Source: Bacteroidales bacterium (GTDB lineage: Bacteria > Bacteroidota > Bacteroidia > Bacteroidales > WCHB1-69). From it: a stretch of 64,000 bases of DNA. Each line of letters starts with the position of its first letter. The stretch's first letter is position 1. The stretch covers positions 18,503 through 82,502 of the forward strand of contig JAEETJ010000001.1 of assembly GCA_016290295.1 (NCBI GenBank). The letters run 5' to 3'. The notes beneath the pieces were generated by a model. The model made no database searches, was not told the DNA's origin, and saw only the letters and a list, made by a program, of their open reading frames with translations. Made by a program: the position numbers and the translations under genes. Positions 4,866-46,788 of this stretch are shown piece by piece.

Positions 4866-5213
4866 ATGGACAATATATATATGCTAGCAGATATAGTCAT
4901 TCTTTCAAAGATTGGAAGCCGACTGAAACAAGCCAGGCTTAAACAGAACATCACTCAACAGAGTCTTTCCGAATCTTCTGGAGTATCACTATCGTCTATT
5001 AAAAAGATAGAGAAGGGTGAGATTGGATCTTTCGATTCGCTATTGAGATTATTGCGTACATTAGGACTACTTGATGTATTGCTGCCATTGGTAGAAGAAG
5101 AACAAATGAGTCCAAATGATTACTATGAGTTGATGCATTCGATCAAAATCAAAACAAGGAAGCGTGCAGCCAGAAAACTTCACCAAAAAGAAAAGGAGAA
5201 TTCAACATGGTAG
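4866..5213 (+). CDS. XRE-family HTH antitoxin/regulator (HipB-like)
   Basis: RLKQARLKQNITQQSLSESSGVSLSSIKKIEKG HTH motif. Overlaps the start of the hipA-like gene. Confidence 0.85.
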   Translation: MDNIYMLADIVILSKIGSRLKQARLKQNITQQSLSESSGVSLSSIKKIEKGEIGSFDSLLRLLRTLGLLDVLLPLVEEEQMSPNDYYELMHSIKIKTRKRAARKLHQKEKENSTW

Positions 5214-9127: not shown

Positions 9128-10663
9128 TCAAAAAGTACGGACACTACGTACATTAAAAAAATCATGATACGTAGCCCATTCTTCTAAATCTCCATCGTTG
9201 TGCAATGCATACGCACAATCAGCACATCCATAACCGCCTGTCTTTGTTGACGACCAATAGTAATAATAGTTGTCCATTGGAAATGGAGTACCACCCACTA
9301 TTTGCAAGGATGCATTTATGGTGACCATTTTAGGATATAGCAGACACAACTGACCAGCCGCAGGCAGGTACCAACCGTTGGCTATATCAACTGAATAGGC
9401 CGCTGGATAAGTCGAGGAGTCACCCGCAGCACGAATACATTCAGTGTTGGCGTATCCATTCAAATCGTAAATGGCATTACGGGCGTATGAATAGCCTGTC
9501 AAGCATGGTAAATTACCATGGTTTGATGACCACTGTATATGACTAGCTTGGTCATGCAGGTGCACAGCCCAGCCGTGTTCATTTGTGGTGTCCACATAAA
9601 ACACAATTCCCATGGCCGTCTTTCCTGCCACAGGCCAAGAGGATGGCTTCACAATACTGCTGTCTGTACAGAGTATATCTCCCACCGCAATAGGTGGCGT
9701 ACGTATCTCTGGTATGCTGAGAGTGGTCACATTAGCCTGCATCACAACACTATCCCCAAGACATATTGTATCAGCACTGGATATAATATCAATCTTACCG
9801 GCTATTGTCAACTCCAATGTCACCACACTGTCGCAGCCATTGGCGGCTGTGAAGGTCTGGGTGTAGCTTCCACTTTCATAATAAGTAATACCGTTCCATG
9901 TATAACTTTCATATACAACAGCTGAAAATGTCGAAGTTTTTACAGGTTTAATGGTAAGCCATAAGGTAAGTGGAGAACTGCAACCGTCCGTAGTCAACGG
10001 GCGACTACGAACAAGGTCGCACACTATACTCGTTTCCTCCGCCGTAAGGCTGTATCCATAGCCCTCATAGCCAGCCCCCTGGCACAGGGTGTCATGAATA
10101 ACTTGCGATGCACCCGTACCCACAATCACAATATGTTCTGTAGTAGCACTACAGCCATAATCGGTAGTAGCAGTCACCGTATAAGTGGTCGTTTGCGTGG
10201 GAAATACCGTGATATACGGCTGCGTACTGCCCGTGTTCCATTGATAAGTCAACGTTGTGTCATACGCTATTGAAGGAGGGTTAACCACAACCTCTGAATG
10301 TTCTCCCAAGGCATGTACTACAACACTTTGACCCGCACAAATTTCAGAAGGTTGCGCAAGAGTACCAAGTATGGGGGTACCCACCACCAAAAGTTGCAAT
10401 ACTCGCACACTGTCACAACCCTGTACAGTGGTAAAATGTTCGGTATAGGTAAACCAACCGACACTGTCCTGTCGCGCTAAATTAAATCCATATCGATGAT
10501 AATCGTTCCCCGAACATAAAGTGTCCCTGTATAAGAAATGATAGGCATTAATGTCCGTGGAATCGGAGCACTGGGCAACAGCATCCACCCAACCGCAACA
10601 AAACAACAGCAAAACACTTAACCACCTTCTCATTTTATCGCCATTATTTTCATACTTATACAA
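9128..10663 (-). CDS. Secreted protein with C-terminal DUF1566/Lcl domain
   Basis: Signal peptide (the true start may be at MRRWL); GCDSV repeats; VGDILCTD..GIVFYVD..GWYLPAAGQL..YWSST..VRSVRTF. No T9SS C-terminal domain. Confidence 0.78.
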   Translation of the reverse strand: MYKYENNGDKMRRWLSVLLLFCCGWVDAVAQCSDSTDINAYHFLYRDTLCSGNDYHRYGFNLARQDSVGWFTYTEHFTTVQGCDSVRVLQLLVVGTPILGTLAQPSEICAGQSVVVHALGEHSEVVVNPPSIAYDTTLTYQWNTGSTQPYITVFPTQTTTYTVTATTDYGCSATTEHIVIVGTGASQVIHDTLCQGAGYEGYGYSLTAEETSIVCDLVRSRPLTTDGCSSPLTLWLTIKPVKTSTFSAVVYESYTWNGITYYESGSYTQTFTAANGCDSVVTLELTIAGKIDIISSADTICLGDSVVMQANVTTLSIPEIRTPPIAVGDILCTDSSIVKPSSWPVAGKTAMGIVFYVDTTNEHGWAVHLHDQASHIQWSSNHGNLPCLTGYSYARNAIYDLNGYANTECIRAAGDSSTYPAAYSVDIANGWYLPAAGQLCLLYPKMVTINASLQIVGGTPFPMDNYYYYWSSTKTGGYGCADCAYALHNDGDLEEWATYHDFFNVRSVRTF

Positions 10664-10787
10664 TCAGCTCTAACCACCCCATATTAATATCTTTGCAAAA
10701 TTACACAAATTTTCCAAATAACAAATATAGGATCACAGCTACCGTATGAAATTTTTCGGCTGTAACTCCGGCGACTAAATCTTTTGA

Positions 10788-11801
10788 TTACCTTAGGTAT
10801 TCCGCAATCTTCACCACGGCGGAGCGGGCATCGGTGAGGGTGTCGTTGAGCGACATGGGGCGCTTGCAACTGCCCGCCACAAACAACCCCGGCTGGGCCG
10901 TCTCATTGTCACGCAGATGCGGGTTCATCGTGGTGGCAAAGCCATACGAATCAGCACAATTGCACTGCCGTGTCAGCATTTTCGTTCCTTCCGACGGCTC
11001 CATGCCCACCATCAGCACCAGCAAGTCGGCACTCATCTTCAGCGGCAAGCCCACCAGCGTGTCTTCCGACTTAATCTGGATTTTGCCATCGTAGGTTGAT
11101 GCCGCCTCGGAGATACGGCCACGGACATAGCGTACTCCGTATTTCTCCTGCGACTCGCGGTACATTTCCTCGAAACCACCGCCCCACATACGCAAATCCA
11201 TGTAGAAAATATAAGTTTCCACCTCAGGCAAAAGTTTCCTCAGCTCTATGGCCTGTTTTACGGCCGTCACGCAGCAAACTTTCGAGCAGTAATGGTTGCC
11301 CGACTTCTCATCACGCGAGCCCACACACTGCAAAAAAACAATCTTCTTGGGGGTATCGCCAACGGCATTGAGGACTTTCCCTTCCTTGATTTTCTTTTCC
11401 ATATCGATGGAAGTAATCACTCCAGGATAAATGCCATAACCCAACTCTTCTTTCCGATGGGCATCAAACACCTTGTAACCTGTGGTCATCAACACCGCAT
11501 CAGCCGTATAGCTGGTTCCTTCAGCATCCTGCAACTGCCAGCCACCATCCTGTTCCGTCACCGACTTCACCTCCTTGCCCGACAACAACTTGATGTTATC
11601 CCTATTGAGTTTTGCCTCTAAAATTTCCACTAAATCGTCCGCTGCTGAAAAATCAGGGAAAAGGAACGCTTTGTCCCTCAGATTATCCAGCGTAGAGGCC
11701 GATTTCTCGAAAAGCAGGATTTCGGTTTCTTCCTTGGCAGCCAATATCGAAGCTGCTTCTATACCGGCCGGTCCGGCACCTATGATTGCGATGGTTTTCA
11801 T
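10788..11801 (-). CDS. hdrA: Short heterodisulfide reductase subunit A-like flavoprotein (sHdrA-sized)
   Basis: GAGPAG FAD motif; FLQCVGSRD..YCSKVCC Fe-S motif; FYMDLR; GLFVAGSCKRP. Only 337 aa, with no ferredoxin insertions. Confidence 0.85.
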   Translation of the reverse strand: MKTIAIIGAGPAGIEAASILAAKEETEILLFEKSASTLDNLRDKAFLFPDFSAADDLVEILEAKLNRDNIKLLSGKEVKSVTEQDGGWQLQDAEGTSYTADAVLMTTGYKVFDAHRKEELGYGIYPGVITSIDMEKKIKEGKVLNAVGDTPKKIVFLQCVGSRDEKSGNHYCSKVCCVTAVKQAIELRKLLPEVETYIFYMDLRMWGGGFEEMYRESQEKYGVRYVRGRISEAASTYDGKIQIKSEDTLVGLPLKMSADLLVLMVGMEPSEGTKMLTRQCNCADSYGFATTMNPHLRDNETAQPGLFVAGSCKRPMSLNDTLTDARSAVVKIAEYLR

Positions 11802-11828
11802 TATATGTCTTTTTTTACATTTTTATAT

Positions 11829-11883
11829 CCCCCACACTGCGCTTCGCTTATGTGGGGTTATTGAAATTCAACCTCTTCGAGGT
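11829..11883. repeat. REP-like double hairpin between hdrB and hdrA
   Basis: CCCCACA-CTGCGCTTCGCTTA-TGTGGGG followed by ACCTC-TTC-GAGGT. Both loops read C-GAA-G on the minus strand. Confidence 0.6.
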
Positions 11884-11927
11884 CGTTTTATTTTTAGTTC
11901 TCCTTCTTCAAATTCCAGTTCTTAAAC

Positions 11928-12004
11928 TCAATTTGCACATTTACTAATTAACTAATTTGCTAATTTTTCATTGGCACATTAGCACATTGTTAATTAGCAC
12001 ATTA
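11928..12004. repeat. Octamer tandem repeats (TTAGCACA/TTTGCTAA family) starting at the hdrB stop codon
   Basis: TTACTAATTAACTAATTTGCTAATT ... TTGGCACATTAGCACATTGTTAATTAGCACATT. Confidence 0.75.
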
Positions 12005-13066
12005 AACTTTCAGCACCGTCGGCTTATCCGGCATGGAGAGCACCTTGCCCGACACGCCTTTGTACTTTTCATCAGGATTGTAGGCAATGCCGATTTTGTT
12101 CAGTAAAGTCTCGCACTGCACCTGATGCAGCTGCAAGCCCAACACCCACGGATCATAGCCTAACAGCAAGCCCGTCAATTCCTCGTAGGTGAGCACCGGA
12201 ATGCCATAGCCGTCCTTGTCGTAGGTTTTGTGCTCCAGCTCGGCGATGGTGTACTGCCACTTGTCCAAAAACATGCCGCAACCCGGACAGTTGGTGAGGA
12301 TAAAGTCAGGCTCGTAGGGTTCCATCGACTCGAACTTCTTCTTGGAGTTGGCCACCGAATAGCCACGGTTTTCCTGCACCAGATACTGGCGGAAACCGAA
12401 ACCACAGCAATGGCGTCTTTCGGGATAGTCAATCACCTCACCGCCCCAAGCCTCAATCATGCCCGACAGCACATGCGGGAACTCCGACTTGCCCACGCCC
12501 TTCTCGGGGAATATCTTGGCATAGTGGCAACCTACATGCTCCACAGCCCGCAAGGGTTTGCCCGTAAAGCGGTTCACCAGCTGGTATTTCATTTTCGGTT
12601 TCAGCTCGTTTCTGAATTTAAAAATGATATCAGAAGGATGGGCAATATTCTTGGGCAGCTCAAACTCACGGCCAGTAGCCTCACGCAAGTATTTGCGAGC
12701 CTGTTCCAACAAAGCGGGATCATGCTTCCACATCTCCACCATCTCGGTGAACACACCGAACGAGGTGACACATGAGGGCACATAGTTCTCGTAGCCATCT
12801 TCCGTCATCAGTGAGAACAGGCGGGCCACCACCGTCATTGTGGTCTCAATCGGCACCACATCCGAGTGATAGCCGATACCCGTACAGGTATGCTGGTTGG
12901 CCTCATCCTTGATGTCCTTGCCCAACTCTTCCCTCATTATCTTCAGGAAAGCGGCCTCAGAGCCTGGAAAGAAAGTCTGACGGATACAACTTCTCTCGTA
13001 GAAGTAATGGTCGTCAGCGATCTCCTTTTGATATTCGTTCCAGAAACGTTTTGGAATCTCACTCAT
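12002..13066 (-). CDS. hdrB: Heterodisulfide reductase subunit B-like protein (CCG domains, sHdrB1-like)
   Basis: Degenerate N-terminal CCG domain (SC..FPG..QHTCTGIGYHS..PSCVTS) and intact C-terminal HVGCH..HCCGFG..NCPGC..LD..Q..IPV. Confidence 0.82.
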   Translation of the reverse strand: MSEIPKRFWNEYQKEIADDHYFYERSCIRQTFFPGSEAAFLKIMREELGKDIKDEANQHTCTGIGYHSDVVPIETTMTVVARLFSLMTEDGYENYVPSCVTSFGVFTEMVEMWKHDPALLEQARKYLREATGREFELPKNIAHPSDIIFKFRNELKPKMKYQLVNRFTGKPLRAVEHVGCHYAKIFPEKGVGKSEFPHVLSGMIEAWGGEVIDYPERRHCCGFGFRQYLVQENRGYSVANSKKKFESMEPYEPDFILTNCPGCGMFLDKWQYTIAELEHKTYDKDGYGIPVLTYEELTGLLLGYDPWVLGLQLHQVQCETLLNKIGIAYNPDEKYKGVSGKVLSMPDKPTVLKV

Positions 13067-13111
13067 TATAGTTTACAGTTAATAATTAACAATGAATAAT
13101 TAATAGTTTTT

Positions 13112-13187
13112 CTCCCCTCAAACACGCAGTGCGAGACTCCCCTTTCATGCGAAGCATGACTCCCCTCGAACGAAGTGAGACTCCCCC
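13112..13187. repeat. CTCCCC/mini-hairpin array, copy A
   Basis: CTCCCC-TCAAACAC[GCA]GTGCGAGA-CTCCCC-TTTCATGC[GAA]GCATGA-CTCCCC-TCGAAC[GAA]GTGAGA-CTCCCC. Confidence 0.8.
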
Positions 13188-13200
13188 ACCTATCACTACC

Positions 13201-14973
13201 CTATCCAATGCTTCGGCTCACCAGCTCCGCTACATCCATCACCTTTGCATCAGTAGCGCGGGTGAAGGCCTTCTTGCACATCGGACAAGCCGTGCATATC
13301 AGGTCAGGATTGCCCGCTTGCAGGTTCTCCAAAGCGGCATTGCGAATCTTCTCCTGCTGTTCCAGCTCAATCACCGTGTTGCCCAGATTGAAGCCACAGC
13401 ATAAGCTATGCTCGCGTTCCTCGGGCGTCTCCATCAGCATCGCCACACTGTTCAGCACATCACGGGGTTCCTGGTAAATGCCACAGCCACGGCCCAATTC
13501 GCAGGGATCGTGATAGGTCACCTTCAGCGACGCATCCTTGTTCACCTTCAACTTACCGCTCTTAATCAGCTCCGCGATATATTCCGTATGATGCATCACC
13601 TTGATGGGCAGCTTGTATTCTTTAGTAAACGACTGATAACAAATCGGGCAGGAAGTGACCAACAACGTAGCGTGTGACTGCACAATCAGCTGGGTATTTT
13701 TCCTACGTAAATCAGCAGCCTGCGTATGGAAACCCTGTTGCATCAGCGGACGTCCACAGCAAATCGTTGCATCCTTGTCCATATACCAGTACTTCTGCCC
13801 CACCGTCTCGAAAATCTTCTCCATGGCCTCGGGAATACCTGGAGTCAAGTGCGACATACAGCCCGCGAAATACACCACACGGTCCATGGCGTTAAAGGGC
13901 CGCACCGTGTCCAAATAGCGATAATTGTTCTTGGTATCGAGCTCTTTCTTATCGCGCATCTGGCGACGGATGGCCATTAAATCGAGCTGCACCGGACAAT
14001 CACTTGCGCAACGACTGCACATCAGGCAGTTATCAGCAATCTCATCCTTTAGCATTTTATAACGGATATCACGCAAGAAATACACTGATTGTACTCCCTT
14101 GATATCCAGTTGTTTATTCAGCGGACAAGCGTCAATGCAAATACCACAGCGCGAACAAGCACTCAGTTCGTACATGGTATAACCCGACTTCTGCTCATTT
14201 TCCTTCACTCCCAAGCGGCGGAAGAAAATCAGGAATACCTCGGTGAAGATGTGCATGTAACGGGAGAAAGGCATGGACACAAAGAACACGCCCAAAGCCA
14301 AGGAATATAGCAGCCAGCAGATATATTCCACATACACATTGGCGAAAGGCAGGATGTCGCCTATCGTTTGCGTGAGGAAACCGCCGTTATGATACATAGC
14401 TGCCGTCACACTCTCTGACAGTAATCTGAAGGGGAAAATACACCACAGCGACACCTTGGCGAAGCGGTCGAAAATCACATGCTTGGTGACCTTCTTCATG
14501 CCCACAATACGACTGTAAATCATCTTCACAAAGGCGATAGCGATACCCGACAGCACAAAAAGCAGCAGTCCGTCCATCACCTGCGTAAAAATAGCTGCGG
14601 AGGCGAATGTATTATGGTCATGCTGGAAGAAGCGGTAGAAGATGGCCACCCAGAATGGCTTGCTGCCATGGATGCCCAATTCCGCCTCGAAAAAACCTAC
14701 CACAATCAGCAGAAACCATCCGAAGGCGATGCTGGCATGCATATAACCCAACACAAGGTTCCGCTTGAAAATACGGCGGTGCAGCAGCGACTCCATGACA
14801 ATCTCCCAGATAGCCGGCAAAAACTTCCAAGAGAGGATATTTTTCTTGATAATAGCCCGCTGCAAACGGTCAAAGCCGCGATACCACCTGATATACTTCC
14901 AAATACAGATGGCAAACAGCAGCACTACGCCGATGCAGAACGGAATCACAAAGGGACTGAAATACTTACTCAT
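13201..14973 (-). CDS. Membrane-bound Fe-S oxidoreductase: NarI/HdrE-like membrane domain, 2x[4Fe-4S] and two CCG domains (HdrDE/HdrF-like fusion)
   Basis: Several TM helices with His residues (GYMHAS, RYMHIF); CSRCGICIDACP and CLMCSRCASDCP; YFAGC..CCG..SCPIC; YHDPC..CCG..ACPMC. Confidence 0.82.
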   Translation of the reverse strand: MSKYFSPFVIPFCIGVVLLFAICIWKYIRWYRGFDRLQRAIIKKNILSWKFLPAIWEIVMESLLHRRIFKRNLVLGYMHASIAFGWFLLIVVGFFEAELGIHGSKPFWVAIFYRFFQHDHNTFASAAIFTQVMDGLLLFVLSGIAIAFVKMIYSRIVGMKKVTKHVIFDRFAKVSLWCIFPFRLLSESVTAAMYHNGGFLTQTIGDILPFANVYVEYICWLLYSLALGVFFVSMPFSRYMHIFTEVFLIFFRRLGVKENEQKSGYTMYELSACSRCGICIDACPLNKQLDIKGVQSVYFLRDIRYKMLKDEIADNCLMCSRCASDCPVQLDLMAIRRQMRDKKELDTKNNYRYLDTVRPFNAMDRVVYFAGCMSHLTPGIPEAMEKIFETVGQKYWYMDKDATICCGRPLMQQGFHTQAADLRRKNTQLIVQSHATLLVTSCPICYQSFTKEYKLPIKVMHHTEYIAELIKSGKLKVNKDASLKVTYHDPCELGRGCGIYQEPRDVLNSVAMLMETPEEREHSLCCGFNLGNTVIELEQQEKIRNAALENLQAGNPDLICTACPMCKKAFTRATDAKVMDVAELVSRSIG

Positions 14974-15319
14974 TGTCTTTCCGTTTTGGGTCTGTCAATA
15001 TTTTTTTCATATTCATAATCATCGAACGAAGATTTACCCCACGGGGGCACACCAAGGTGCATTTTCCACATAACATGCAGGGTCTCAGTTCTTTTTCCAA
15101 ATCCTGATACTGCTGCATTCTGAACAAAGAATGAATCCTTCGGATGTTATAATCGGTGAACTGACGGGCAGAGCAAGTAGCCGAGCAGGCACCGCAATTC
15201 ATGCAGCGCTTGAATGATGGCACCTCTGCCTCCAACTGTTTCAACAGCCGGTTATCCGCCACATCCATGTTGATAGAACGCGGTGTTGAGATGGCAAAAC
15301 CAAATTTCAGATTTCTCAT
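14966..15319 (-). CDS. Small HdrC-like 2x[4Fe-4S] protein
   Basis: CMNCGACSATCS and CMLCGKCTLVCPRG. Overlaps both neighbouring genes. Confidence 0.82.
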   Translation of the reverse strand: MRNLKFGFAISTPRSINMDVADNRLLKQLEAEVPSFKRCMNCGACSATCSARQFTDYNIRRIHSLFRMQQYQDLEKELRPCMLCGKCTLVCPRGVNLRSMIMNMKKILTDPKRKDNE

Positions 15320-15927
15320 TTCTCGCCCTCCAACACTTTTTTACGTAATTCCATGCCACCTGTCACCTCGAAAATTCTACGCACTTCCTCCAAGTTTTCC
15401 TCACGAATCTTACGAAGCGCACCGGGACCGTCACCATGATAGTTGGCACCTAATTTCGGGGCTATCTCTTCGATATTCTCACGATACCATGCCCAAATGG
15501 GACCCTGTTCAGGATGATACTCTGGGTCAACCGTATCAGGATGTACACAATAACCAATATTCAAGATATTGGAGCCGCAACCTTTCATAATTTCCACCTG
15601 CTGACGCCCCATCACACTATCCTTGAAATAGCCTAACTCCTGTGAGCGTTTCCGCAAAACAGATATCACCTCTCCTGGAATATTTCCTCTCGGGCAGCGC
15701 GGCTTGCAAGACATGCACTGACCGCAGTACCAAATAGTTTCGGAGCGAAGCAGATTCTCAATTTCCGCCTCATCCTGCCGTTGAATCGTATCGCAGATAC
15801 GGCGTGGATCGTAGTCATAGAACTCCGCCGCAGGACAGATAGCCGTGCAGACACCGCAGTTCATACAGGCTTTCAAGGCCTCCTCAAAGCGGATATCCTG
15901 CATCAGTAAATCATGCAAATTTCCCAT
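15316..15927 (-). CDS. hdrC: Heterodisulfide reductase subunit C-like protein (sHdrC1-like)
   Basis: CMNCGVCTAICP..YDYDPR..IWYCGQCMSCKPRCPRGN and C-terminal HPEQGP..RIFEVTGG. Confidence 0.85.
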   Translation of the reverse strand: MGNLHDLLMQDIRFEEALKACMNCGVCTAICPAAEFYDYDPRRICDTIQRQDEAEIENLLRSETIWYCGQCMSCKPRCPRGNIPGEVISVLRKRSQELGYFKDSVMGRQQVEIMKGCGSNILNIGYCVHPDTVDPEYHPEQGPIWAWYRENIEEIAPKLGANYHGDGPGALRKIREENLEEVRRIFEVTGGMELRKKVLEGEK

Positions 15928-15929
15928 TT

Positions 15930-17012
15930 TTATTGCATTTTAATTCGATTGAATCTCATCAGCTTGTAGAAAAATTTCGGCAATGCCTTGGTACGGTCAC
16001 GCTTCAACAAGTCGATGAATAAATGAAGTTTACGGGCAACAGGTATTCTATAGGTCTCCACAAACTCTATCAACGTGCCATCGGGGTCCTCAATATAGGT
16101 AAAATGACCTGAAGCCTCGCCCATGTCGAACTGGCTCTGACCAGCACAGCTGTCCACCGTAAAGGGGAAGCCCTTGGACTGGCAATAAGCCTCCAACTCC
16201 CTCATGTTGATGGTATCCATGCAAATCTGGATATAACCAGGGTCACCCCAGTAGCGGCCTTCGAATATCTTGCGGGGCTGATGCTCCAAAGCTACCACCA
16301 ACTCAATATAGCCAGGACCGAAAAGACTTGAGAATGGGCCTTTCCTTGGCTGCTTGTTTGTCAGCAACACTCTTCTGTACTGCTGATCGCCAGCTCTAAG
16401 GAAAGCTAAATCCTCAAAAGTTCCCGTCTTGTCATACATAATGGTGTCGAAGCCCAGTATATCCTGATATACCACCAAGGCCTTTTCCACATCGGTCACA
16501 CCGACCATCATGCCAACCACACCACCTGAGGGATAGCCTGTTTTCACACAGACGAAATCATCCTCCACCGCCTGGAAATAGTTGCCAAAGGGGTCTTCGA
16601 GAAAGAAAGTCTTATGTCCGTCAGGAGCTATCGCAATCGGGCCCACCTTATCGTATTTCGACGTAAGTTGCTGATGAAAAGCCTCTATATCAAAGCATCT
16701 TAACTTGGCCACAAATACCCCGAGGTCGCCAACTTGGATGTCAAAAGACACCGGCTGCGGTTTACGTTCGGAATACTGCCAAATCTCAAAACCAGCACCG
16801 CCTTGCAGGTTGATAGCGACGCAGGCATGGCGTTTCTGCGGCGACTGTCCCGTGTAAGGCAACATGTGCTCCGCCACGGTATCATCTTCCAGAATCTTAA
16901 TGTCCATCTGAAACATGTCGATATACCACTTCCAAGCCTGCTCGAAGTTCTCCACTCCGATACCAACTTGCTGGATTCCTGAAAAGAAATAGTTTTTGTT
17001 CATATATTTCAA
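15930..17012 (-). CDS. Two-domain VOC/glyoxalase-family protein
   Basis: IQQVGIGV..FEIWQ..FFLEDPFGNYFQ and a second domain ..YIELV..YIEDPDGTLIEFVE. The true start may be the internal MNKNY. Confidence 0.82.
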   Translation of the reverse strand: MKYMNKNYFFSGIQQVGIGVENFEQAWKWYIDMFQMDIKILEDDTVAEHMLPYTGQSPQKRHACVAINLQGGAGFEIWQYSERKPQPVSFDIQVGDLGVFVAKLRCFDIEAFHQQLTSKYDKVGPIAIAPDGHKTFFLEDPFGNYFQAVEDDFVCVKTGYPSGGVVGMMVGVTDVEKALVVYQDILGFDTIMYDKTGTFEDLAFLRAGDQQYRRVLLTNKQPRKGPFSSLFGPGYIELVVALEHQPRKIFEGRYWGDPGYIQICMDTINMRELEAYCQSKGFPFTVDSCAGQSQFDMGEASGHFTYIEDPDGTLIEFVETYRIPVARKLHLFIDLLKRDRTKALPKFFYKLMRFNRIKMQ

Positions 17013-17118
17013 TGTGCTAATGTGCTAATCAAATTAAGAATTAAGAGTTAAGAATGTTGAATTGTTGAACTGTTGAATTGTTTATAGTTTTTAGTTCTTA
17101 ATTCTTAGTTTTTAGTTC
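17010..17118. repeat. Mixed octamer/heptamer tandem repeats with inverted arms
   Basis: (AATGTGCT)2, (TTAAGAA/TTAAGAG)3, (TGTTGAAT)3, then (TTCTTAA/TTTTTAG)n, which is the reverse complement of the TTAAGAA block. Confidence 0.75.
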
Positions 17119-17120
17119 AT

Positions 17121-17195
17121 CTCCCCTCGAACGCAGTGAGACTCCCCTTCATGCGCAGCATGACTCCCCTCGAGCACAAAGTGCGAGACTCCCCC
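17121..17195. repeat. CTCCCC/mini-hairpin array, copy B
   Basis: CTCCCC-TCGAAC[GCA]GTGAGA-CTCCCC-TTCATGC[GCA]GCATGA-CTCCCC-TCGAGCAC[AAA]GTGCGAGA-CTCCCC. Confidence 0.8.
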
Positions 17196-17199
17196 ATCA

Positions 17200-18003
17200 T
17201 TACATCGATTTAATGCTCCTCGCAATCCTCGCTGCCAGTCCCGGGAAGAAGCGCTTGATGTACGCCATCAGCAACTCCTTGCGGCCCACCAATATCTCGC
17301 GTTTCTTACGGTACACAGCCTTGACAATCTTGTTGGCAGCTTGCTCAGGAGTAACCCCGCCAGCCTGACCAGCATCTAATTTGCCATGACGGGAACCGTC
17401 TTTCTCCAAAGCATAGAAGGAAATGTTGGTTCTCACCCTGCCTGGGCAAACGATGGTAACACGAATGTTTTGGTTATAATACTCCGCCTGCACAGTCTCG
17501 AAAAAGCCGTACAAAGCATGCTTGGCCGACGAATAGGCGCAACGCAACGGAAAGCCGAACAAGCCAGCAATGCTGGTGGTTACCACTAACTGTCCCCCAC
17601 CCTGCGCAATCATCTTCGGCAGTACCACCTTGGTCAGAATTACTGGCGCATAATAGTCAATATCCATTACCTTGCGGATAACACTCATCTGCGTCTCAAT
17701 AGTAGTGGCACGCTGACTGATGCCCGCATTGTTATAGAACACGTCAATCCTGCCGAAGCTGTCCCAAGCTCTGGAGGCCAAGTCCTCCAACTGTTCAGTC
17801 TGCGACAAGTCAAAAGGCAGAATTTCCACCGCAGGAGCACCCAATGACAAGCATTTCTCCTTCACTTTCAAGAGGATATCCTCTTCTAAGGCGGTCAGAA
17901 TCAGCTTGGCAGATTCCTGTGCAAAACGATAGGCTGTCGCCTCACCGATACCCGATGAGGAACCAGTGATCCAGACCACCTTATCCTGAAACCAATTAGT
18001 CAT
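17200..18003 (-). CDS. Short-chain dehydrogenase/reductase, putative dehydrocapnine (3-ketocapnine) reductase (CapC-like)
   Basis: ITGSSSGIG, NNAGISQR, catalytic YSSAK. The specific function is inferred from adjacency to the cysteate acyltransferase. Confidence 0.75.
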   Translation of the reverse strand: MTNWFQDKVVWITGSSSGIGEATAYRFAQESAKLILTALEEDILLKVKEKCLSLGAPAVEILPFDLSQTEQLEDLASRAWDSFGRIDVFYNNAGISQRATTIETQMSVIRKVMDIDYYAPVILTKVVLPKMIAQGGGQLVVTTSIAGLFGFPLRCAYSSAKHALYGFFETVQAEYYNQNIRVTIVCPGRVRTNISFYALEKDGSRHGKLDAGQAGGVTPEQAANKIVKAVYRKKREILVGRKELLMAYIKRFFPGLAARIARSIKSM

Positions 18004-18014
18004 AAAAATTTGTT

Positions 18015-19226
18015 TTACAATGAATTGGCAAAATCCTTAGCACGAGCGGCACCTTCACCAGTATTCATCAGCAACATCTCGCCATCGTGAATTTCACCCT
18101 GCTCCAAAGCCTGGTAAAAACCTGCCAGACAGACGATGGAAGCGGGACCCAAAACAACATTGCGTTCTTTCTTCACCAGACGGGCCAAATCCACCAAGTC
18201 GGACTCTTTCACTCTCAAGAATGTACCCCCGCTCTTGCGAACAATAGGTGCCACAATTGGGAACATACCCGGATTGCCTGTGGACAGAATCGACACCTTA
18301 GTCTGCGGATTGTCAATCACCGGATAATTTTTCTCGTAGCCTTCGGGGAAGCCTGCTTTCACGGCATTCTCCCAGCCCTGCACCATAGGATCGCAGGTAT
18401 CCTGCTGCACTAAGAGCATACGCGGCAGCTTTACTTCCGGAAATACCGGTGAGATGTCACGCACACCCTTATCGACAGCGATGGGACCCGTGCCACCAGC
18501 CACAGCCTGCACATACACATCGGGCATACGGCCCAGCTGACGCATGAACTCGAAGACCATGGTTTTCTTGGCCTCTACACGCAGCGGGTCGATATTGCCT
18601 GCGGAAATCAGCACATGGTTGTCCTTGTGGTATGCAGCGGCCAACTTCTTGGCGTATGCATAGTCGCCATCCGCAATATGGATGTGCTGTCCATGCGATT
18701 TGATTTCTTCTACCGTGTCTTTGCACACACATTCCGGTACAAACACGTTGAAATTCACGCCTGCTTTGGCCAGATATCTGCTGTAAGCGGTAGCCGTGTT
18801 GCCCGTTGAGGCCACACAGAACTCCTTCACGCCATTTTCCTTGAAGACTGATGCAGCTAACGATGCGGCCACATCTTTGAAGGTATTCGTACCGCCATTC
18901 AGGTCGTTACGATAAACCATCACTTTACAGTGAATGCCAAATTTCTCCAAAGCGTATTTCTCCATAAAATCCCATTCCTCAATGGGAATAGCACCTTCGC
19001 CGTAAGAAATGATATTCTCGCGATGTTCCAAAGGCAGATAGTCGAAATACAGCCAGAAGCTGTCGGCAGACTGCTTGTACAGTTCCGGCAATTTGGCATA
19101 ATCAGCGGTATAGCGGACATCAGCGTGGTTACTGCCACATTCCGGACAACACTGGTCCTGTGCCAGCCACTGGGCGAAATTTTCCGTCACATGCCCGCAT
19201 TTTTTACAAACAATAGAGTATTTCAT
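18015..19226 (-). CDS. Threonine-synthase-like PLP enzyme, putative cysteate synthase
   Basis: N-terminal CKKC..CPEC, PLP lysine in TNTFKD, ASTGNTA, RVEAKKT and VAGGTG motifs. Cysteate synthase activity is inferred from context. Confidence 0.72.
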   Translation of the reverse strand: MKYSIVCKKCGHVTENFAQWLAQDQCCPECGSNHADVRYTADYAKLPELYKQSADSFWLYFDYLPLEHRENIISYGEGAIPIEEWDFMEKYALEKFGIHCKVMVYRNDLNGGTNTFKDVAASLAASVFKENGVKEFCVASTGNTATAYSRYLAKAGVNFNVFVPECVCKDTVEEIKSHGQHIHIADGDYAYAKKLAAAYHKDNHVLISAGNIDPLRVEAKKTMVFEFMRQLGRMPDVYVQAVAGGTGPIAVDKGVRDISPVFPEVKLPRMLLVQQDTCDPMVQGWENAVKAGFPEGYEKNYPVIDNPQTKVSILSTGNPGMFPIVAPIVRKSGGTFLRVKESDLVDLARLVKKERNVVLGPASIVCLAGFYQALEQGEIHDGEMLLMNTGEGAARAKDFANSL

Positions 19227-19229
19227 ATT

Positions 19230-19380
19230 CGATTAATAATTGACAATTAATAGGTTTCAGGTTACAGGGGTCAGGGGTCAGTGATTAGGGGTTGGGGGGA
19301 GAATTCAAAATTCAAATCGTCAACTGTCAATTGTCAATTTATTCAATTGGCACATTAGCACATTAACTAATTAGCACATT
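19230..19380. repeat. Heptamer/octamer tandem repeat patchwork
   Basis: TTGACAA, (CAGGTTA/CAGGGGT)n, (AATTCAA)n, (TGTCAAT)n and (TTAGCACA)n blocks fill the gap. Confidence 0.75.
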
Positions 19381-19386
19381 AAAAAA

Positions 19387-19463
19387 CTCCCCTTGAGCAC
19401 GAAGTGCGAAACTCCCCTTATGCGAAGCATAACTCCCTGAGCTCACGCAGTGAGCGTCTCCCC
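19387..19463. repeat. CTCCCC/mini-hairpin array, copy C
   Basis: CTCCCC-TTGAGCAC[GAA]GTGCGAAA-CTCCCC-TTATGC[GAA]GCATAA-CTCCC-TGAGCTCAC[GCA]GTGAGCGT-CTCCCC. Confidence 0.8.
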
Positions 19464-19482
19464 GTCTTCACATACTCACGTA

Positions 19483-20739
19483 TTACTCTCTCACCAAGCT
19501 CATCTGCGGAATCGGCTTGTTGTATTCGCCTGCATCCAGTTTCTTCTTGATTTCTTTGAAGACCTCAATGGTGCGGTTGACATGTTCCATCGTGTGAGCA
19601 GCGGTCGGAATGATACGCAGCATGATCACACCCTTAGGCACAACAGGATAGAGTACCATTGAGCAGAAAATACCATGATTTTCGCGCAGATCGACAATCA
19701 AGTTGGTAGCCTGACCTGGGTCGCCCTTCAAGTAAACCGGAGTTACGGGTGACTGGGTTTTGCCCAAGTCGAAACCTTCGGCTTTCAAGCCGCTCTGCAG
19801 CGCGTTGGCAATAGTCCACAATTTCTCGCGGATTTCAGGACGGGTCTTGATGAGTTCCAGACGTTTCATAGCGCCAATCACCATCGGCATAGGCAGTGAT
19901 TTGGCGAAAATCTGTGAACGCATGTTGAAACGCAGATGATCCACCACATATTTCTCGGAAGCCACGAAAGCACCGATGCCGGCCATACTCTTGGCGAAAG
20001 TGGCGAAATACACATCCAGTTCGTCAATTACACCAAAATGAGCGGCAGTACCGTCACCTTTGGGTCCCATTGTACCGAAACCGTGGGCATCGTCGATGAG
20101 CAGACGGAAGGGGAATTCCTTCTTCAGTGCCACGATACCAGCCAAGTTGCCAAGGTCGCCAGCCATACCGAACACACCTTCAGTAATCACCAATACGCCA
20201 CCACCTTGCTCGTCAGCCAATTTGCAAGCCTGAGCCAACTGTTTGCGCAAGCTTTCCATGTCATTATGCTGATACACATATCTCTTGGCGAAGCTCAGAC
20301 GCAGACCATCCATAATGCAAGCGTGAGATTCAGAGTCATATACAATCACATCACGACGGCTGGTCAGCACATCGATAATGGAAATCATAGCCTGATAACC
20401 GAAATTAACCAGATAGCCATAGGGTTTACCTACAAAATGAGCCAAATCCTGCTCTAATTGCTTATGATATTTGGTATCACCCGACATCATACGGGCTCCC
20501 ATGGGAGCTGCCATACCGAAATCGCGGGCACCCTGGGCGTCTGCCTCACGAACTTCGGGCATATTGGCCAAGCCCAAGTAATTATTCAAACTCCAGTTCA
20601 GCACTTTCTTGCCGTTAAACACCATCTCGGGGCCGATTTCGCCTTCCAAACGGGGAAACATGAAATAACCGTCGGCATTAGCCTGATACTGACCAAGGGG
20701 ACCCGGAGTCTCTTTAATTCTTTCAAAAATGTCTTTCAT
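19483..20739 (-). CDS. Alpha-oxoamine synthase, cysteate-C-fatty acyltransferase type (SulA/CapB; first committed step of sulfonolipid synthesis)
   Basis: GY.MFPRLEGEIGP, WSLNNYLGL, PMGARMMSG, DDAHG and PLP Lys250 (TFAKS). QIFAKSLPM places Lys280 where serine palmitoyltransferases have FSAS. Confidence 0.85.
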   Translation of the reverse strand: MKDIFERIKETPGPLGQYQANADGYFMFPRLEGEIGPEMVFNGKKVLNWSLNNYLGLANMPEVREADAQGARDFGMAAPMGARMMSGDTKYHKQLEQDLAHFVGKPYGYLVNFGYQAMISIIDVLTSRRDVIVYDSESHACIMDGLRLSFAKRYVYQHNDMESLRKQLAQACKLADEQGGGVLVITEGVFGMAGDLGNLAGIVALKKEFPFRLLIDDAHGFGTMGPKGDGTAAHFGVIDELDVYFATFAKSMAGIGAFVASEKYVVDHLRFNMRSQIFAKSLPMPMVIGAMKRLELIKTRPEIREKLWTIANALQSGLKAEGFDLGKTQSPVTPVYLKGDPGQATNLIVDLRENHGIFCSMVLYPVVPKGVIMLRIIPTAAHTMEHVNRTIEVFKEIKKKLDAGEYNKPIPQMSLVRE

Positions 20740-20835
20740 AAGCTTAAAAAGTTAAATATGTTAAAAAAACTTAATTTGTTATATATTTGATTTTCAATTA
20801 ATTATATCAAACATCCATCAATATTTTTGGACATA

Positions 20836-20843
20836 CAAACTTA
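20836..20843 (-). promoter_or_regulatory. Candidate -7 promoter element (TAAGTTTG) for the sulfonolipid-Hdr operon
   Basis: TAnnTTTG match about 100 bp upstream of the start. No such match was seen in the internal gaps of the cluster. Confidence 0.5.
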
Positions 20844-21160
20844 CACATTTTTTTTGAATGAAGAATATTTTTCTTAAAAAATGTTATGATGGAATGAATC
20901 GTGGAAAATACTAATGATAAGTTTCAAGGAAATAACTGGCAATACTAAGAAAAATGAATTATCACTTTGAAACTTTTCGAAAAATTTCTTCCAAAAAAAA
21001 GGGGTCATCCGTGCCATGGAAGATGTTCATAAGTCTAAAAATTGTTGATAACTTTTTTTCAGAATCCCTTATTCTGTAAGCAGTTTCACTTGTTTAAGCC
21101 TTCTTAAACTTTTCTTTATGAAAAAAAATAAAAAACGTGTTTTTATTGAAAAAAATGTAT

Positions 21161-21168
21161 TATCTTTG
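21161..21168 (+). promoter_or_regulatory. -7 promoter element TATCTTTG
   Basis: Consensus match upstream of 21256 in an AT-rich gap. Confidence 0.6.
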
Positions 21169-21255
21169 CGAATTGTGTTACTATAATAATCATATTGTAA
21201 ATAAAAAGCAATTATAGAGAAAATTAAACAAAAATATCAACTAATTTAAACATTT

Positions 21256-24200
21256 ATGAAATCAAAATTCACAAAATTCAAACATTTATCCTTGGCAATG
21301 GCATTTCTGTTCTTTACAGGAATGACCTTTGCACAATCGGGATCAGTGGAAATGACACAGTCATTTACAACTAGCGGTTCATGGAAAGTTCCTGCTGGAG
21401 TAACTGAAATCACCATTGAATGTATTGGTGGTGGTGGTGCCGGCGGCTATGTTCATGGTAAAGGAGTCCTTTTCCAATTGAGCGGTGGCGGTGGCGGTGG
21501 CGCATACGCCAAGAAAGTAGTATCCGTTTCGGGCGGACAAACCGTTAGTGTTGTGGTCGGAGCTGGTGGTCATGCATGGGCAACAGACGGAAACCAAGTA
21601 CATGGTGGCGACTCATACGCAACAGTAGGGGGTTCTATCGTTGTGAGAGCTGCTGGTGGTAAAACAGTAAAAGGAGAAAACACCACAGGTGGTGCCGCAG
21701 GTGGTGCTATCGCCGACTGTATAGGAGATACTAAATATGCCGGCGGAAAGGGTGGAAATGGAGAAGCAGCCGCTTTGTGGTTCCAAGAACCAGGTGGTGG
21801 TGGTGGTGCAGCAGGTTCATCTGGAAATGGTAAAAATGGTGCCACCAACGCTGGTGGTGCGGCAACCTCCAACTATGGCGGTAAAGGCGCAGATCCTAAA
21901 GTAATTATCGGAAAGGGAAATACTGGTGGCAACTACGGTGGTGGTGGATCTGGCGCCGAATGTACTGGTATTGGTGGTGAATACGGTGGTGATGGTGCCA
22001 ATGGATATGTTATTATCACCTATATGACTCCCCCCGAACTGAACGTTAACGACATGACCGCTGAAATTTGCTCTGGTGAAACATTCTCCGTTACTCCAAC
22101 TGGTACAATTCCTACAGGTACAACATATTCTTGGTCTGCTCCTTCAGTGACAGGTATCACAGGTACAGCAGCCGGTAGTGGAGCAACTGAAGTTAGTGGT
22201 ACACTCACAAGTACCAATACCGCCAATACCGATGTGGTTTACAATGTTACCGCCACAGACGGAAGCAATACCGACGACTTCACCGTAACAGTTACTGTAA
22301 AGGGTATTATCACCCCAGGTTCCATTACTGCTGACATTATCTCCTGTAATGCTGGTGATACCTCAAAGATTTTCTCCAGCAATACAGATGCTACTGGCAA
22401 TGGCAAATACTTGTGGATGAAATCTACAGACAACACAACTTGGACCGCAATAGACAACGCAACAAACAATACTTATACTCCTATCTATATGGGCAACACT
22501 GGATTAACCTATTATAAACGCACTTTTTATTCAGATTGCGAAAGTGTGGAATCCAATGTATTGACCTTACAATACCCTGGAACCGTAAATCCTGGTCAGG
22601 TAAAATCCGCAGATCCTAAAAAATATTGCTATGGCAGTGCTGTAACGACAACTTTGGATACAAGTAAAGTTTACATCCAAAGCGGCGCAAGCGTAGAAAT
22701 CCAATGGCAAGAATCAACCGACAATGGCGCAACCTGGACCAACATCAGCGGCGCAACATCACATGAATATGCTGTGAACATCACAAGCCTGACCTCAGAC
22801 ATCAGCTACCGCTATACTATCAGATTGGCTGGTTGCGACTCCATCCCTGCTAACCAATGGGATTTCAGCACCTACGTTCTTCCTGTTATCAACTCCCTTA
22901 CTCCTCACGACACCTGCCCTGGAGTTACAGAGTATTATATTACTGCAGACATCACCATAGGCGATGGAGCTATCACCTCCTATTATTGGCATGGATCTTC
23001 CACAGGATCCCCATACGATACTGACACTATTACCGCTAGTAGCTGTGGAGATATATACAATTACTCATTGATAGTAGAAGATGTGAACGGATGTAAGAGC
23101 GAATCTAAGTCAGGATCCTTCACAAGCCCTGTTGAACCTACTCCCACTTTCATCACTGAAACTATGGGTGATTTCAAATCTTCCACCTGTGAATATACAA
23201 TTCCTGACCTGCAAGACACCCTCGAAAAAGCTTTCAAACACGACTGCAACTTTATCAAATCATATTCGCAGAATCCCACAGCCGGAACTGCAATGGCAAA
23301 CAACGCTACAGTACCTGTAACAGCTACCATTGAAACTTATTGCGGAAATACTTACACCCCTACTGTAAATGTGAAAAGTGATATTCCTGGTATTACTGCA
23401 GCTGATATCGATTTTGACGACAAAAACGATACCATTACCCTGTACTATGGTGTATGCGATACCCTTTATTATGTAAAAACTCCTGATTATGACGTTACAA
23501 GTAGCAGCCCCTACGCTAAAAGCGATTTGACCTTAACCAACGATGCACCTTATGGTGGAACTGTCAATGAAGGTACAATTTTAGGTCGTATCAGCGGTGG
23601 TGAACACACTATCATTTGGAAACTTACAAGTCCTTGTGGAAACTACCTTGAATTCCCCAAGAAATATGTTGTGATGTATCCTCCTTGCGGTGGTGATGTA
23701 AAAGCTACCGATGCTGATGGTATTGAATATGAAAGCGTACGTATTGGCTGCGAATGCTGGACCAAGACCAACCTGAGAACTGTAACCGGTGTAACAGGTA
23801 ACAGCTATGTATATCAAGATGATCCCGCCAATGAAACCAAATTCGGCAGACTCTATACTTGGTATTCTGCAGTAGGTTTGGCAGAAAATGCCACTACCGA
23901 TCCCGCTACTGTCACCGATCCGAAAACCAACAAACCCTACGTTCAAGGTATTTGTCCTACAGGCTGGGCTCTTCCGACCGCAGACGCATACGTTAACATG
24001 GTAACAACTGCTGGTGGCGTGAAAAACATCAAATCAAGCGACGCAAGCACCTGGTTGCCAGACATAGCTGGTACCGACGCTTCTGGCTTCGGCGCTGTGG
24101 GTGCTGGTTACTACACCGACCAAGAATTCTATTATTACAATCTGTTGGGTGAAGCTTATTTCTGGACTTGCGAAGGTGAGCCCATTTATAAGAAAGGAAC

Positions 24201-46686: not shown

Positions 46687-46695
46687 GGATTAAAA

Positions 46696-46773
46696 CTCCC
46701 CTCGAATGCGTAGCATGAGACTCCCCTGATGCGAAGCATCACTCCCCTTGAGCACGAAGTGCGAAACTCCCCT
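46696..46773. repeat. CTCCCC/mini-hairpin array, copy D
   Basis: CTCCCC-TCGAATGC[GTA]GCATGAGA-CTCCCC-TGATGC[GAA]GCATCA-CTCCCC-TTGAGCAC[GAA]GTGCGAAA-CTCCCC. Confidence 0.8.
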
Positions 46774-46788
46774 TACTATCTCTTACGT

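Follow-up and report, generated by a model that had tools for sequence, protein, structure and literature searches.

A membrane-anchored Hdr-like gene unit beside sulfonolipid genes in Bacteroidales as a candidate module for sulfite supply

In a 64,000-nt stretch of the genome of a Bacteroidales bacterium, an uncultured anaerobe of the gut or rumen (assembly GCA_016290295.1, contig JAEETJ010000001.1, positions 18,503-82,502; hereafter the window, and its genome, 97.7% complete, G000), nine open reading frames (ORFs) follow one another in a single orientation, on the minus strand, at 10788-20739. Starting from the upstream end they are sulA, a ThrC-like gene, an SDR gene, a VOC gene, hdrC, hdrC2, a gene for a membrane subunit, hdrB and hdrA, and the present analysis concerns the relation of the five hdr genes to the sulfonolipid (capnine) genes that precede them. 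A sequence-only reading of this DNA had named nine co-oriented genes in this order, and all nine ORFs stand where it placed them, with Pfam and NCBIfam profiles agreeing on the families. Two sets of relatives are used for comparison. Counts out of 80 refer to the best 80 of 591 loci with relatives of the membrane subunit, found in a scan of one genome per species, and counts out of 151 refer to a sample of the order that covers about 148 families, roughly one genome per family.

Gene content of the locus

The first gene, sulA (19483..20739, minus strand), encodes an alpha-oxoamine synthase whose matches among PDB sequences include 7u7h (E 2.4e-191) and 28eh, titled 'cysteate-C-fatty acyltransferase' (4.4e-173), against 4.2e-74 for the best serine palmitoyltransferase (Spt). 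The entry title of 7u7h itself reads '7-keto-8-aminopelargonate synthetase-like enzyme', and the paper on SulA identifies 7U7H as that enzyme (PMC13692747). The lysine that binds pyridoxal phosphate (PLP) is Lys250, and the motif FAKSLPM, as had been claimed, is present at residues 278-284 and contains Lys280; a lysine replacing the alanine of Spt (Lys281 in SulA, Lys280 in CapB) distinguishes the cysteate enzymes from Spt (PMC9304779, PMC13692747). Judged both by its fold with the PLP lysine, nearer to SulA/CapB than to Spt, and by the diagnostic lysine, the window protein is a SulA/CapB orthologue with a predicted preference for cysteate. SulA carries out the first committed step of capnine/sulfonolipid synthesis. 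In eight of 14 loci examined (L121, L125-L127, L130-L133), sulA stands divergent beside a bamD-rpoZ-coaBC-porD-recN operon, which may be an older position of the gene and would tie it to genes of outer-membrane biogenesis.

The second gene encodes a ThrC-like PLP enzyme with an N-terminal zinc ribbon (18015..19226, minus strand; PALP, 142.7 bits). It differs from the known cysteate synthase of the capnine pathway: the protein scores 116.8 bits against the equivalog model TIGR03844, far below its cut-off of 324.9, which rules out membership of the canonical type represented by that model and by the solved cysteate synthase 9k3c (E 3.9e-10). Local identity to the canonical enzyme of the relative G030 is 27%. 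In the order sample, 32 genomes encode the canonical synthase (a fragment of 311.9 bits in G159 is counted as such) and 31 the ThrC-like type, and none encodes both (chance of no overlap 2e-4). The ThrC-like gene is the last in VOC-cysH-cysD-cysN-DASS symporter-cysQ-...-thrC-like operons (G088, G152), in which the cys genes score above the NCBIfam cut-offs (PRK02090, 281 bits; CysD, 452; CysN, 552; CysQ, 258), and it also occurs in sulA-cysH-(transporter)-thrC-like loci (G124, G094, G046). Thus the ThrC-like type replaces the canonical enzyme and is linked both to sulfite-forming genes and to sulA, and we propose it as a putative second, non-canonical type of cysteate synthase. In the loci with this type (L107-L112, L114-L116), it often closes a cysH-cysD-cysN operon that lies beside sulA. 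In genomes with neither type, a third cysteate synthase was sought beside sulA in 14 loci, and no candidate appeared there.

The SDR encoded by the third gene (17200..18003, minus strand; adh_short, 163.8 bits) is a candidate 3-ketocapnine reductase by virtue of its gene context, and its orthologue comes after the ThrC-like gene in 15 of the 80 loci. It is followed by the gene for a two-domain VOC (glyoxalase-fold) protein (15930..17003 from ATG, or to 17012 if the start is TTG, minus strand; Glyoxalase, 36.9 bits). The predicted model of the VOC protein (pLDDT 84.9) matches the folds of PcpA, GLOD4 and a two-domain glyoxalase I with TM scores of 0.5-0.6 at 12-15% identity; a comparison with PDB sequences gave no match up to E 1, and its relatives in the Atlas are only Bacteroidota VOC clusters without assigned function. 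This Bacteroidota-specific protein travels with sulfonolipid genes: its gene stands beside hdrC or the SDR gene in 29 of 80 loci, and in relatives it is also found beside cysH (G088, G152) and divergent from sulA (copies at L110 6318-7397, L111 11962-13041 and L109 9141-10199).

The five remaining genes encode Hdr-like subunits. A C1-like hdrC (15316..15927, minus strand; HdrC models at 90.1 and 88.1 bits, both below cut-off) carries two [4Fe-4S] motifs (Cys 21/24/27/31 and 68/71/74/78), and a small ferredoxin-like hdrC2 of 117 residues (14966..15319, minus strand; Fer4_8, 37.3 bits; Cys 39/42/45/49 and 81/84/87/91) overlaps both of its neighbours. In related loci hdrC2 always immediately precedes the gene for the membrane subunit. 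This subunit (13201..14973, minus strand; 590 residues; CCG, 86.7 bits in two stretches) is of the EtfD/EMO/HdrDE type, with a helical N-terminal membrane part, two [4Fe-4S] motifs and two complete CCG motifs, and among 14 aligned orthologues His65, His79, His241 and all cluster cysteines are invariant. Its predicted model (pLDDT 81.1) has helices at 7-33, 73-100, 126-156, 167-194 and 213-254, and its best fold match is EtfD of M. smegmatis (9ojn; E 6e-18, TMq 0.62, 18% identity), a menaquinone reductase, which bears out in predicted fold the link to quinone suggested from the sequence. In EtfD, which crosses the membrane with five helices, a heme b ligated by His78 and His241 is joined by two cubane clusters and two CCG-domain clusters into a wire that leads to menaquinone; the structure of EtfD overlays HdrDE (PMC13083937). 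By their position, His79 and His241 of the window protein may bind heme b in the same way; the histidines are thus candidate ligands and heme binding is a prediction.

The B1-like hdrB (12002..13066, minus strand; HdrB model, 141.5 bits, below cut-off) matches methanogen HdrB chains over its full length (E 8e-26) and has a complete C-terminal CCG motif (Cys 180/220/221/260/263). The last gene encodes a short HdrA of 337 residues with FAD and one [4Fe-4S] cluster (10788..11801, minus strand; cluster motif Cys 159/172/176/177). Residues 1-330 of the 337 align with the 349-residue chain 6tjr (E 3.9e-53), taken here as the sHdrA protein from Hyphomicrobium denitrificans although its entry title does not name it as such; methanogen HdrA chains match residues 91-332 only. 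Short length, FAD, one [4Fe-4S] cluster and the lack of the extra methanogen domains are general features of sHdr, and the window protein has them all.

All five hdr genes are present together in 60 of the 80 loci, which belong to Bacteroidales, Alistipes, Tidjanibacter, Rikenellaceae, Tannerella, Paludibacteraceae, Lentimicrobiaceae, Prolixibacteraceae and similar groups, and they form one conserved unit. The commonest order, hdrC-hdrB-hdrA-hdrC2-membrane subunit, occurs in 25 of the 80 loci with nothing else recognised there, and parallels the known order shdrC1B1A(H)C2B2/B3; the order hdrC-hdrC2-membrane subunit-hdrB-hdrA of the window is a rearranged form.

Distribution, linkage and exchange of the hdr unit

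A test of co-occurrence between hdr and SulA had been called for, and its outcome is one of strict nesting. The hdr unit is present in 53 and SulA in 117 of the 151 genomes of the order sample, and SulA is found in all 53 hdr-positive genomes as compared with 64 of the 98 hdr-negative ones (Fisher p 3.4e-8). In these counts SulA matches of 32-35% identity are left aside (paralogues in G003, G006, G009, G025 and others), as are partial CCG matches to the membrane subunit (E > 1e-100). The same pattern is seen at closer range: among 41 close relatives of the window genome, 23 have a full-length membrane subunit, of which 22 have SulA and the exception is a genome 73% complete, while nine have SulA only and nine have neither. 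Within the genus, seven of 10 genomes carry sulA together with the ThrC-like, VOC and membrane-subunit genes and three carry none of these; hdrA was found in six of the seven and missed in G004, an assembly of 290 contigs. In a class-wide sample of 301 genomes, hdr occurs in three and SulA in 267, the latter count including the unpublished G350. The hdr unit is therefore nearly confined to this order, and there to SulA-positive genomes. As a separate observation, SulA/CapB orthologues of at least 57% identity have a much wider distribution than one would expect from the few genera that have been studied (117/151 in the order, 267/301 in the class).

Physical linkage between the two groups of genes recurs in the 80 loci. 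Here the hdr genes are accompanied by sulA in 20, by the ThrC-like gene in 20, by the SDR gene in 15, by the VOC gene in 29 and by the canonical synthase in one, with at least one of these in 37, and the proposed synteny test turned up associations in at least six gene orders. The order of the window, sulA-thrC-SDR-VOC-hdrC-C2-mem-B-A (mem, membrane subunit), was seen in six loci, four of which have a further ~3 kb between SDR and VOC. Seven loci have hdrC-B-A-C2-mem-sulA-thrC(-SDR-VOC), three have VOC-hdr... with SDR-thrC-sulA convergent downstream, and two have sulA-thrC-hdrC-B-A-C2-mem(-SDR-VOC). In G157, the genes sulA-thrC-hdrC-hdrB-hdrA-hdrC2-membrane subunit are joined by 4-bp overlaps and short gaps, and G022 has the same gene content with gaps of about 20-35 bp. 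Two non-homologous synthases are found directly after the membrane subunit gene: the canonical cysteate synthase of G030 (TIGR03844, 442.6 bits; 9k3c, E 1.9e-169) starts 18 bp behind it, a further mem-canonical synthase arrangement with 4 kb between the genes being found in L082, and in G057, as in the mem-thrC locus L069, the ThrC-like gene occupies this spot.

The hdr unit is also exchanged for another module. Where the window has hdr, the sulfonolipid loci of relatives carry cysH-cysD-cysN; in G088 and G152, sulA lies divergent from the VOC-cysH-cysD-cysN operon described above. In G045 (L113 4431-10664), cysH, a gene for an APS/PAPS reductase (PRK02090, 272 bits), lies back to back with the hdr operon.

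Profile searches of G000 found none of PF01507 (PAPS reductase/CysD), PF01583 (APS kinase), PF01747 (ATP sulfurylase) and PF01077 (NIR_SIR), yet SulA and the synthase-like enzyme are both encoded there. In the order sample 33 genomes lack PF01507, and 20 of them are SulA-positive (G087 and G161 are counted as PF01507-positive despite weak hits of about 7e-11). It had been predicted that hdr would be enriched where sulfate genes are lacking, and among SulA-positive genomes it is found in 17 of the 20 without PF01507 as compared with 36 of the 97 with it (odds ratio 9.6, p 8.7e-5). A hand tabulation indicates that 59 of the 61 genomes with SulA and either type of synthase have hdr or PF01507, the exceptions being G147 and G173, and that a synthase is present in 13 of the 17 hdr-positive, PF01507-negative genomes.

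Sulfite supply as a proposed function and its rivals

We suggest, with a probability of roughly 0.55, that the nine genes form one sulfonolipid (capnine) locus in which the hdr genes encode a membrane-anchored, sHdr-like complex that supplies sulfite by oxidizing sulfane sulfur and passing the electrons to menaquinone. The hdr unit is most simply explained as a sulfite-supply module, because it is nested within the SulA-positive genomes, is repeatedly linked to the pathway genes, adjoins two non-homologous synthases, is exchanged for cysH-cysDN and occurs where sulfate genes are missing. Co-occurrence, synteny, the pattern of sulfate genes and the module swap all support the sequence-only reading in this respect. 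Oxidation of sulfane sulfur to menaquinone is the most likely mechanism because of the likeness of the subunits to sHdr and to EMO/EtfD. In such a pathway the complex would oxidize sulfane sulfur, derived from sulfide or a persulfide, to sulfite at the non-cubane clusters of its CCG subunits, and the electrons would pass through the ferredoxin-like subunits and heme b to menaquinone; the ThrC-like enzyme would form cysteate from O-phosphoserine and this sulfite, SulA would condense cysteate with an acyl thioester and the SDR would reduce the 3-keto product. What the complex consumes, that it yields sulfite, which way its electrons run and what the SDR and the VOC protein do are all inferred here. 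Midpoint potentials are about -116 mV for sulfite/sulfide, about -74 mV for menaquinone and +33 mV for fumarate, and with these values the oxidative route would be feasible in a fumarate-respiring anaerobe.

Several observations weigh against this proposal. In the family-level sample sulA lies within a few kb of hdr in only three of the 53 hdr-positive genomes (G000, G113, G157), and in Alistipes-type loci hdr stands alone. As many as 36 of the 53 are also PF01507-positive, so the two routes are not exclusive, and PF01507 lumps CysH with CysD. Among SulA-positive genomes a recognised cysteate synthase is found in 26 of the 53 with hdr versus 35 of the 64 without (p 0.58), which leaves 27 hdr-positive genomes with no recognised synthase; either a further synthase exists there or the complex does something else in these genomes. 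Furthermore, the genomes share descent and are not independent, so that the p-values given here overstate the evidence. With regard to the proteins, the N-terminal CCG motif of HdrB is degenerate, with only Cys 27/61/99 in the first half, and since modules of the EtfD/HdrDE type can run either way, the fold leaves the direction of electrons unfixed. The sulfur partners expected from sHdr are also wanting: the window locus has no lbpA, shdrH, etfAB, sulfur-transferase or lipoate-assembly genes, and TusA was not found anywhere in G000. G000 has a single GcvH-family gene, on a different contig (L119, contig C83, 4017-6209), where it is followed by a gene for a 558-residue fusion of a CoA-disulfide-reductase-type flavoprotein with rhodanese. 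This pair could handle persulfide and feed sulfur to the complex; the neighbours of the GcvH gene are housekeeping genes (a pyrH-like kinase gene, frr). Apart from GcvH, G000 encodes one DsrE-family hit and two rhodanese domains elsewhere, its EtfAB genes lie on another contig, and no LbpA or sulfur transferases were seen in the 80 related loci as far as these were screened with the proteins of the window.

The arrangement of the locus itself adds a further reservation. The junctions, in gene order from sulA, measure 256, 11, 196, 2, -4, -8, 134 and 200 bp; among them are the gaps of 11 and 2 bp and the overlaps of 4 and 8 bp pointed out in the sequence-only reading, and also four spacers of 134-256 bp that it had left unmentioned. 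Such long spacers could hold internal promoters or processing sites. Three of the four contain a repeat element of about 80 nt built from three or four units, each made of GGGGAG and a small palindrome. Copies of this element lie directly after the stop codons of sulA (19380..19482), the SDR gene (17110..17199) and the membrane subunit gene (13110..13200), all on the minus strand, and a fourth, also on the minus strand, lies outside the cluster (46690-46790); the motif has seven hits as compared with 0.16 expected. These repeats may act as terminators or in processing, or may have no role; their folds are no more stable than those of shuffled sequences (z -0.4 to -1.5; -0.43 for the copy after sulA). 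A scan for terminators gave nine sites against 10.3 expected and none that convinces in a spacer, consistent with the earlier remark that no U-tailed terminator was seen inside the cluster. The orthologous clusters of G022 and G157 have short gaps in place of the repeat-bearing spacers. A second, short AT-rich repeat (GTGCTAAT...GTGCTAATGTGCCAAT-like) was seen by eye on the minus strand in the spacers at about 19340-19380, 17020-17045 and 11965-12000.

A candidate promoter element, the TAnnTTTG box TAAGTTTG (20836..20843, minus strand), is the only such box in the spacer upstream of sulA. The motif scan agrees with the sequence-only reading in finding one box upstream and none in the internal spacers, and adds one copy on the minus strand within the VOC ORF (16287-16294) and two downstream of hdrA. 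Because the motif is frequent in the window (66 copies vs 52 expected), the single upstream box is weak evidence. Four bovine-gut metatranscriptome runs contain 5-7% of the sampled words. Their contigs on 10500-21300, 137-390 bases long and possibly including carried-over DNA, touch sulA, the ThrC-like gene, the VOC gene, the membrane subunit gene, hdrB and hdrA and are too short to bridge junctions: none of the gene junctions is spanned, and one contig (19288-19583) extends from sulA into the spacer. With four long spacers, of which three contain the repeat, co-transcription of all nine genes is therefore not established in this organism. The flanking genes are unrelated and encode type IX secretion cargo-like proteins, a methyltransferase and a HipA-like protein; a HipA-like kinase ORF is located at 5207-6487 on the plus strand (HipA_C, 175.7 bits), and 27186-34232 on the minus strand is taken up by one very long ORF, of 2348 residues.

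The main rival to oxidative supply is a reductive one, in which the complex would cleave thiosulfate, or an S-sulfonated thiol (S-sulfocysteine, for example), at its S-S bond to give sulfite and a thiol, in the way that Hdr enzymes act on a heterodisulfide, with electrons from menaquinol or via HdrA. The evidence from linkage, nesting and module exchange fits this idea equally well. Enzymes with CCG domains are disulfide reductases, membrane modules of the HdrDE type draw electrons from the quinone or phenazine pool (PMC13083937), and the partners described as universal for sulfane-oxidizing sHdr systems (PMC11094781) are missing here, TusA from G000 and LbpA and sulfur transferases from the locus. 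A reductive direction is nonetheless unlikely in our view. The gene order and the short HdrA resemble sHdr, for which the known direction is oxidative, and this HdrA lacks the extra domains of bifurcating HdrA proteins. Moreover, cleavage of thiosulfate to sulfide and sulfite takes place near -400 mV, far below the potential of menaquinol.

The complex might also serve the sulfonolipid pathway with no free sulfite involved, for instance by oxidizing a cysteine-derived thiol or persulfide towards cysteate or by recycling a thiol cofactor for the VOC protein or another enzyme of the pathway. VOC enzymes often act on thiol adducts, and it would be tempting to connect this with the VOC gene being the commonest neighbour of hdrC (29 of 80 loci); the 27 hdr-positive genomes with no recognised cysteate synthase, all of which have SulA, point in the same direction. 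We nevertheless hold this idea to be quite unlikely, as two unrelated types of cysteate synthase each stand directly beside the hdr unit, the sulfite-forming cysH-cysDN genes replace hdr in relatives, where the VOC gene is found beside cysH too, and, where hdr is the sole candidate source of sulfite, a synthase is encoded in 13 of the 17 genomes.

Still another view would regard the hdr unit as an unrelated respiratory or disulfide-reducing module of anaerobic Bacteroidales whose position has no functional meaning. In most families the unit is indeed found away from sulA and is flanked by housekeeping genes unrelated to it (peptidase S46, pdxA, an MscS channel, CCA-adding enzyme, transketolase, DUF3108), SulA is so common (117/151) that the nesting could partly reflect shared ancestry, and the spacers of the window allow separate transcription. 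An accidental association appears improbable in the face of a nesting of 53 out of 53, a linkage that recurs in several independent gene orders including overlapping genes, two non-homologous synthases adjoining the unit, the gain or loss of the whole set together within a genus, and the enrichment of the unit where sulfate genes are missing. Least probable is that the complex consumes sulfite, as a reductase or detoxifier guarding against the pathway intermediate, since, even if its association with sulfite genes such as the cysH of G045 is neutral as to direction and no siroheme sulfite reductase family was found in G000, that genome would then have no sulfite source at all for its cysteate synthase-like enzyme and the complex would compete with the pathway it is located with.

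Relation to known systems and biological meaning

Two types of sHdr system are known, each encoded in one syntenic cluster: type I as shdrC1B1AHC2B2 (PMC11582611) and type II as shdrC1B1AHB3 with etfAB, where C2 forms a fusion with B2 and a gene for an ETF:menaquinone oxidoreductase (EMO) accompanies the others (PMC11582611, PMC11094781). Both are accompanied by LbpA and sulfur transferases such as DsrE, TusA and rhodanese (PMC11094781). The description of the hdr module as sHdr-like stands in regard to the short HdrA and fails in regard to membership of either type and to LbpA and the sulfur transferases. Type I was rejected because, with C-, B- and A-like genes and the small C-like gene all present, H is missing and B2 is replaced by a membrane protein with a ferredoxin part of its own; type II was rejected because, with the EMO/EtfD-like protein present, the locus has neither H nor etfAB.

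The closest comparison is nevertheless with these systems. Type II shares with the window the core of HdrC1-, HdrB1- and short HdrA-like subunits in the same order, a protein uniting a ferredoxin-like part with CCG domains, and an EtfD/EMO-like membrane protein able to pass electrons to menaquinone. It differs in that the window locus has no shdrH, no separate shdrB3 and no etfAB, the EMO-like protein standing at the B3 or C2B2 spot, in that no lbpA, lipoate-assembly or sulfur-transferase genes adjoin hdr, and in that the host is an anaerobe in which the neighbours are genes of lipid synthesis rather than sox genes. Type I of H. denitrificans has the order C-B-A-C2-(B2-like), a short HdrA of about 340 residues and sulfite as its proposed product in common with the window; that system is soluble and cytoplasmic, whereas the window complex has a membrane subunit, lacks H, LbpA and TusA, and has an HdrB in which the first CCG motif is degenerate. 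With EtfD and the archaeal HdrDE the likeness is confined to the membrane subunit, namely a helical membrane part with conserved histidines, two [4Fe-4S] motifs and two CCG domains; identity to EtfD is only 18%, the partner here is an HdrABC-like set instead of ETF, and the long disordered tail of EtfD is absent.

On the side of the lipid, the CapA-CapB-CapC or Cys-CFAT-KCR pathway of Capnocytophaga, Chryseobacterium and Alistipes, in which cysteate is made from O-phosphoserine and sulfite, agrees with the locus in SulA/CapB with Lys250 and Lys280 and in having a PLP enzyme and an SDR alongside, and differs in that the PLP enzyme of the window is not of the TIGR03844/9k3c type. Assimilatory sulfate reduction by CysDN and CysH takes the place of hdr in the sulfonolipid loci of relatives and presumably yields the same product, sulfite, but does so with unrelated proteins and from sulfate; PF01507, PF01583 and PF01747 are all missing from the profile results for G000. 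As far as their available text goes, the papers on the pathway start from O-phosphoserine and sulfite and do not address where the sulfite comes from, and that of PMC9304779 never mentions the word 'sulfite' (PMC9304779, PMC13692747). The main text of the paper on sHdr systems does not mention 'Bacteroid', its supplementary table of phyla lying outside that text (PMC11094781). A literature search covering papers but not their supplements found none that links Hdr-like genes with sulfonolipids or describes the hdr unit in Bacteroidales. Thus, an sHdr-like complex is found here in a new physiological setting, and this route of sulfite to sulfonolipids is undescribed in the literature searched.

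We would go further only tentatively, and with somewhat less than even confidence, in speculating that the complex represents a third, membrane-anchored sHdr-like type in anaerobic Bacteroidales. With menaquinone accepting the electrons, it would form sulfite from sulfane sulfur that derives from sulfide, for the head group of an outer-membrane sulfonolipid instead of for energy conservation, would act together with a second family of cysteate synthase and the VOC protein, and would be an alternative to CysDN-CysH in about a third of the families of the order, including that of Alistipes.

Among the bioactive lipids of the gut are the sulfonolipids made by Alistipes, Odoribacter and their relatives. 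To the question of how such bacteria, where they lack sulfate reduction, obtain the sulfite for the synthesis of these lipids, the window locus and its relatives offer a testable answer, in which the lipid locus contains its own module for supplying sulfite, be it CysH-CysDN or an Hdr-like complex. They also point to two candidate further members of the pathway, a conserved VOC protein and a cysteate synthase of a second family. If the Hdr route holds, sulfur oxidation of the Hdr type would no longer be confined to dissimilatory sulfur oxidizers with an aerobic or microaerobic life but would include strict anaerobes and an anabolic role, and the complex would offer mechanistic studies a minimal form of sHdr that is coupled to the membrane. 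The sulfide that abounds in gut and rumen would then be directly linked to the synthesis of membrane lipids and to the menaquinone pool.

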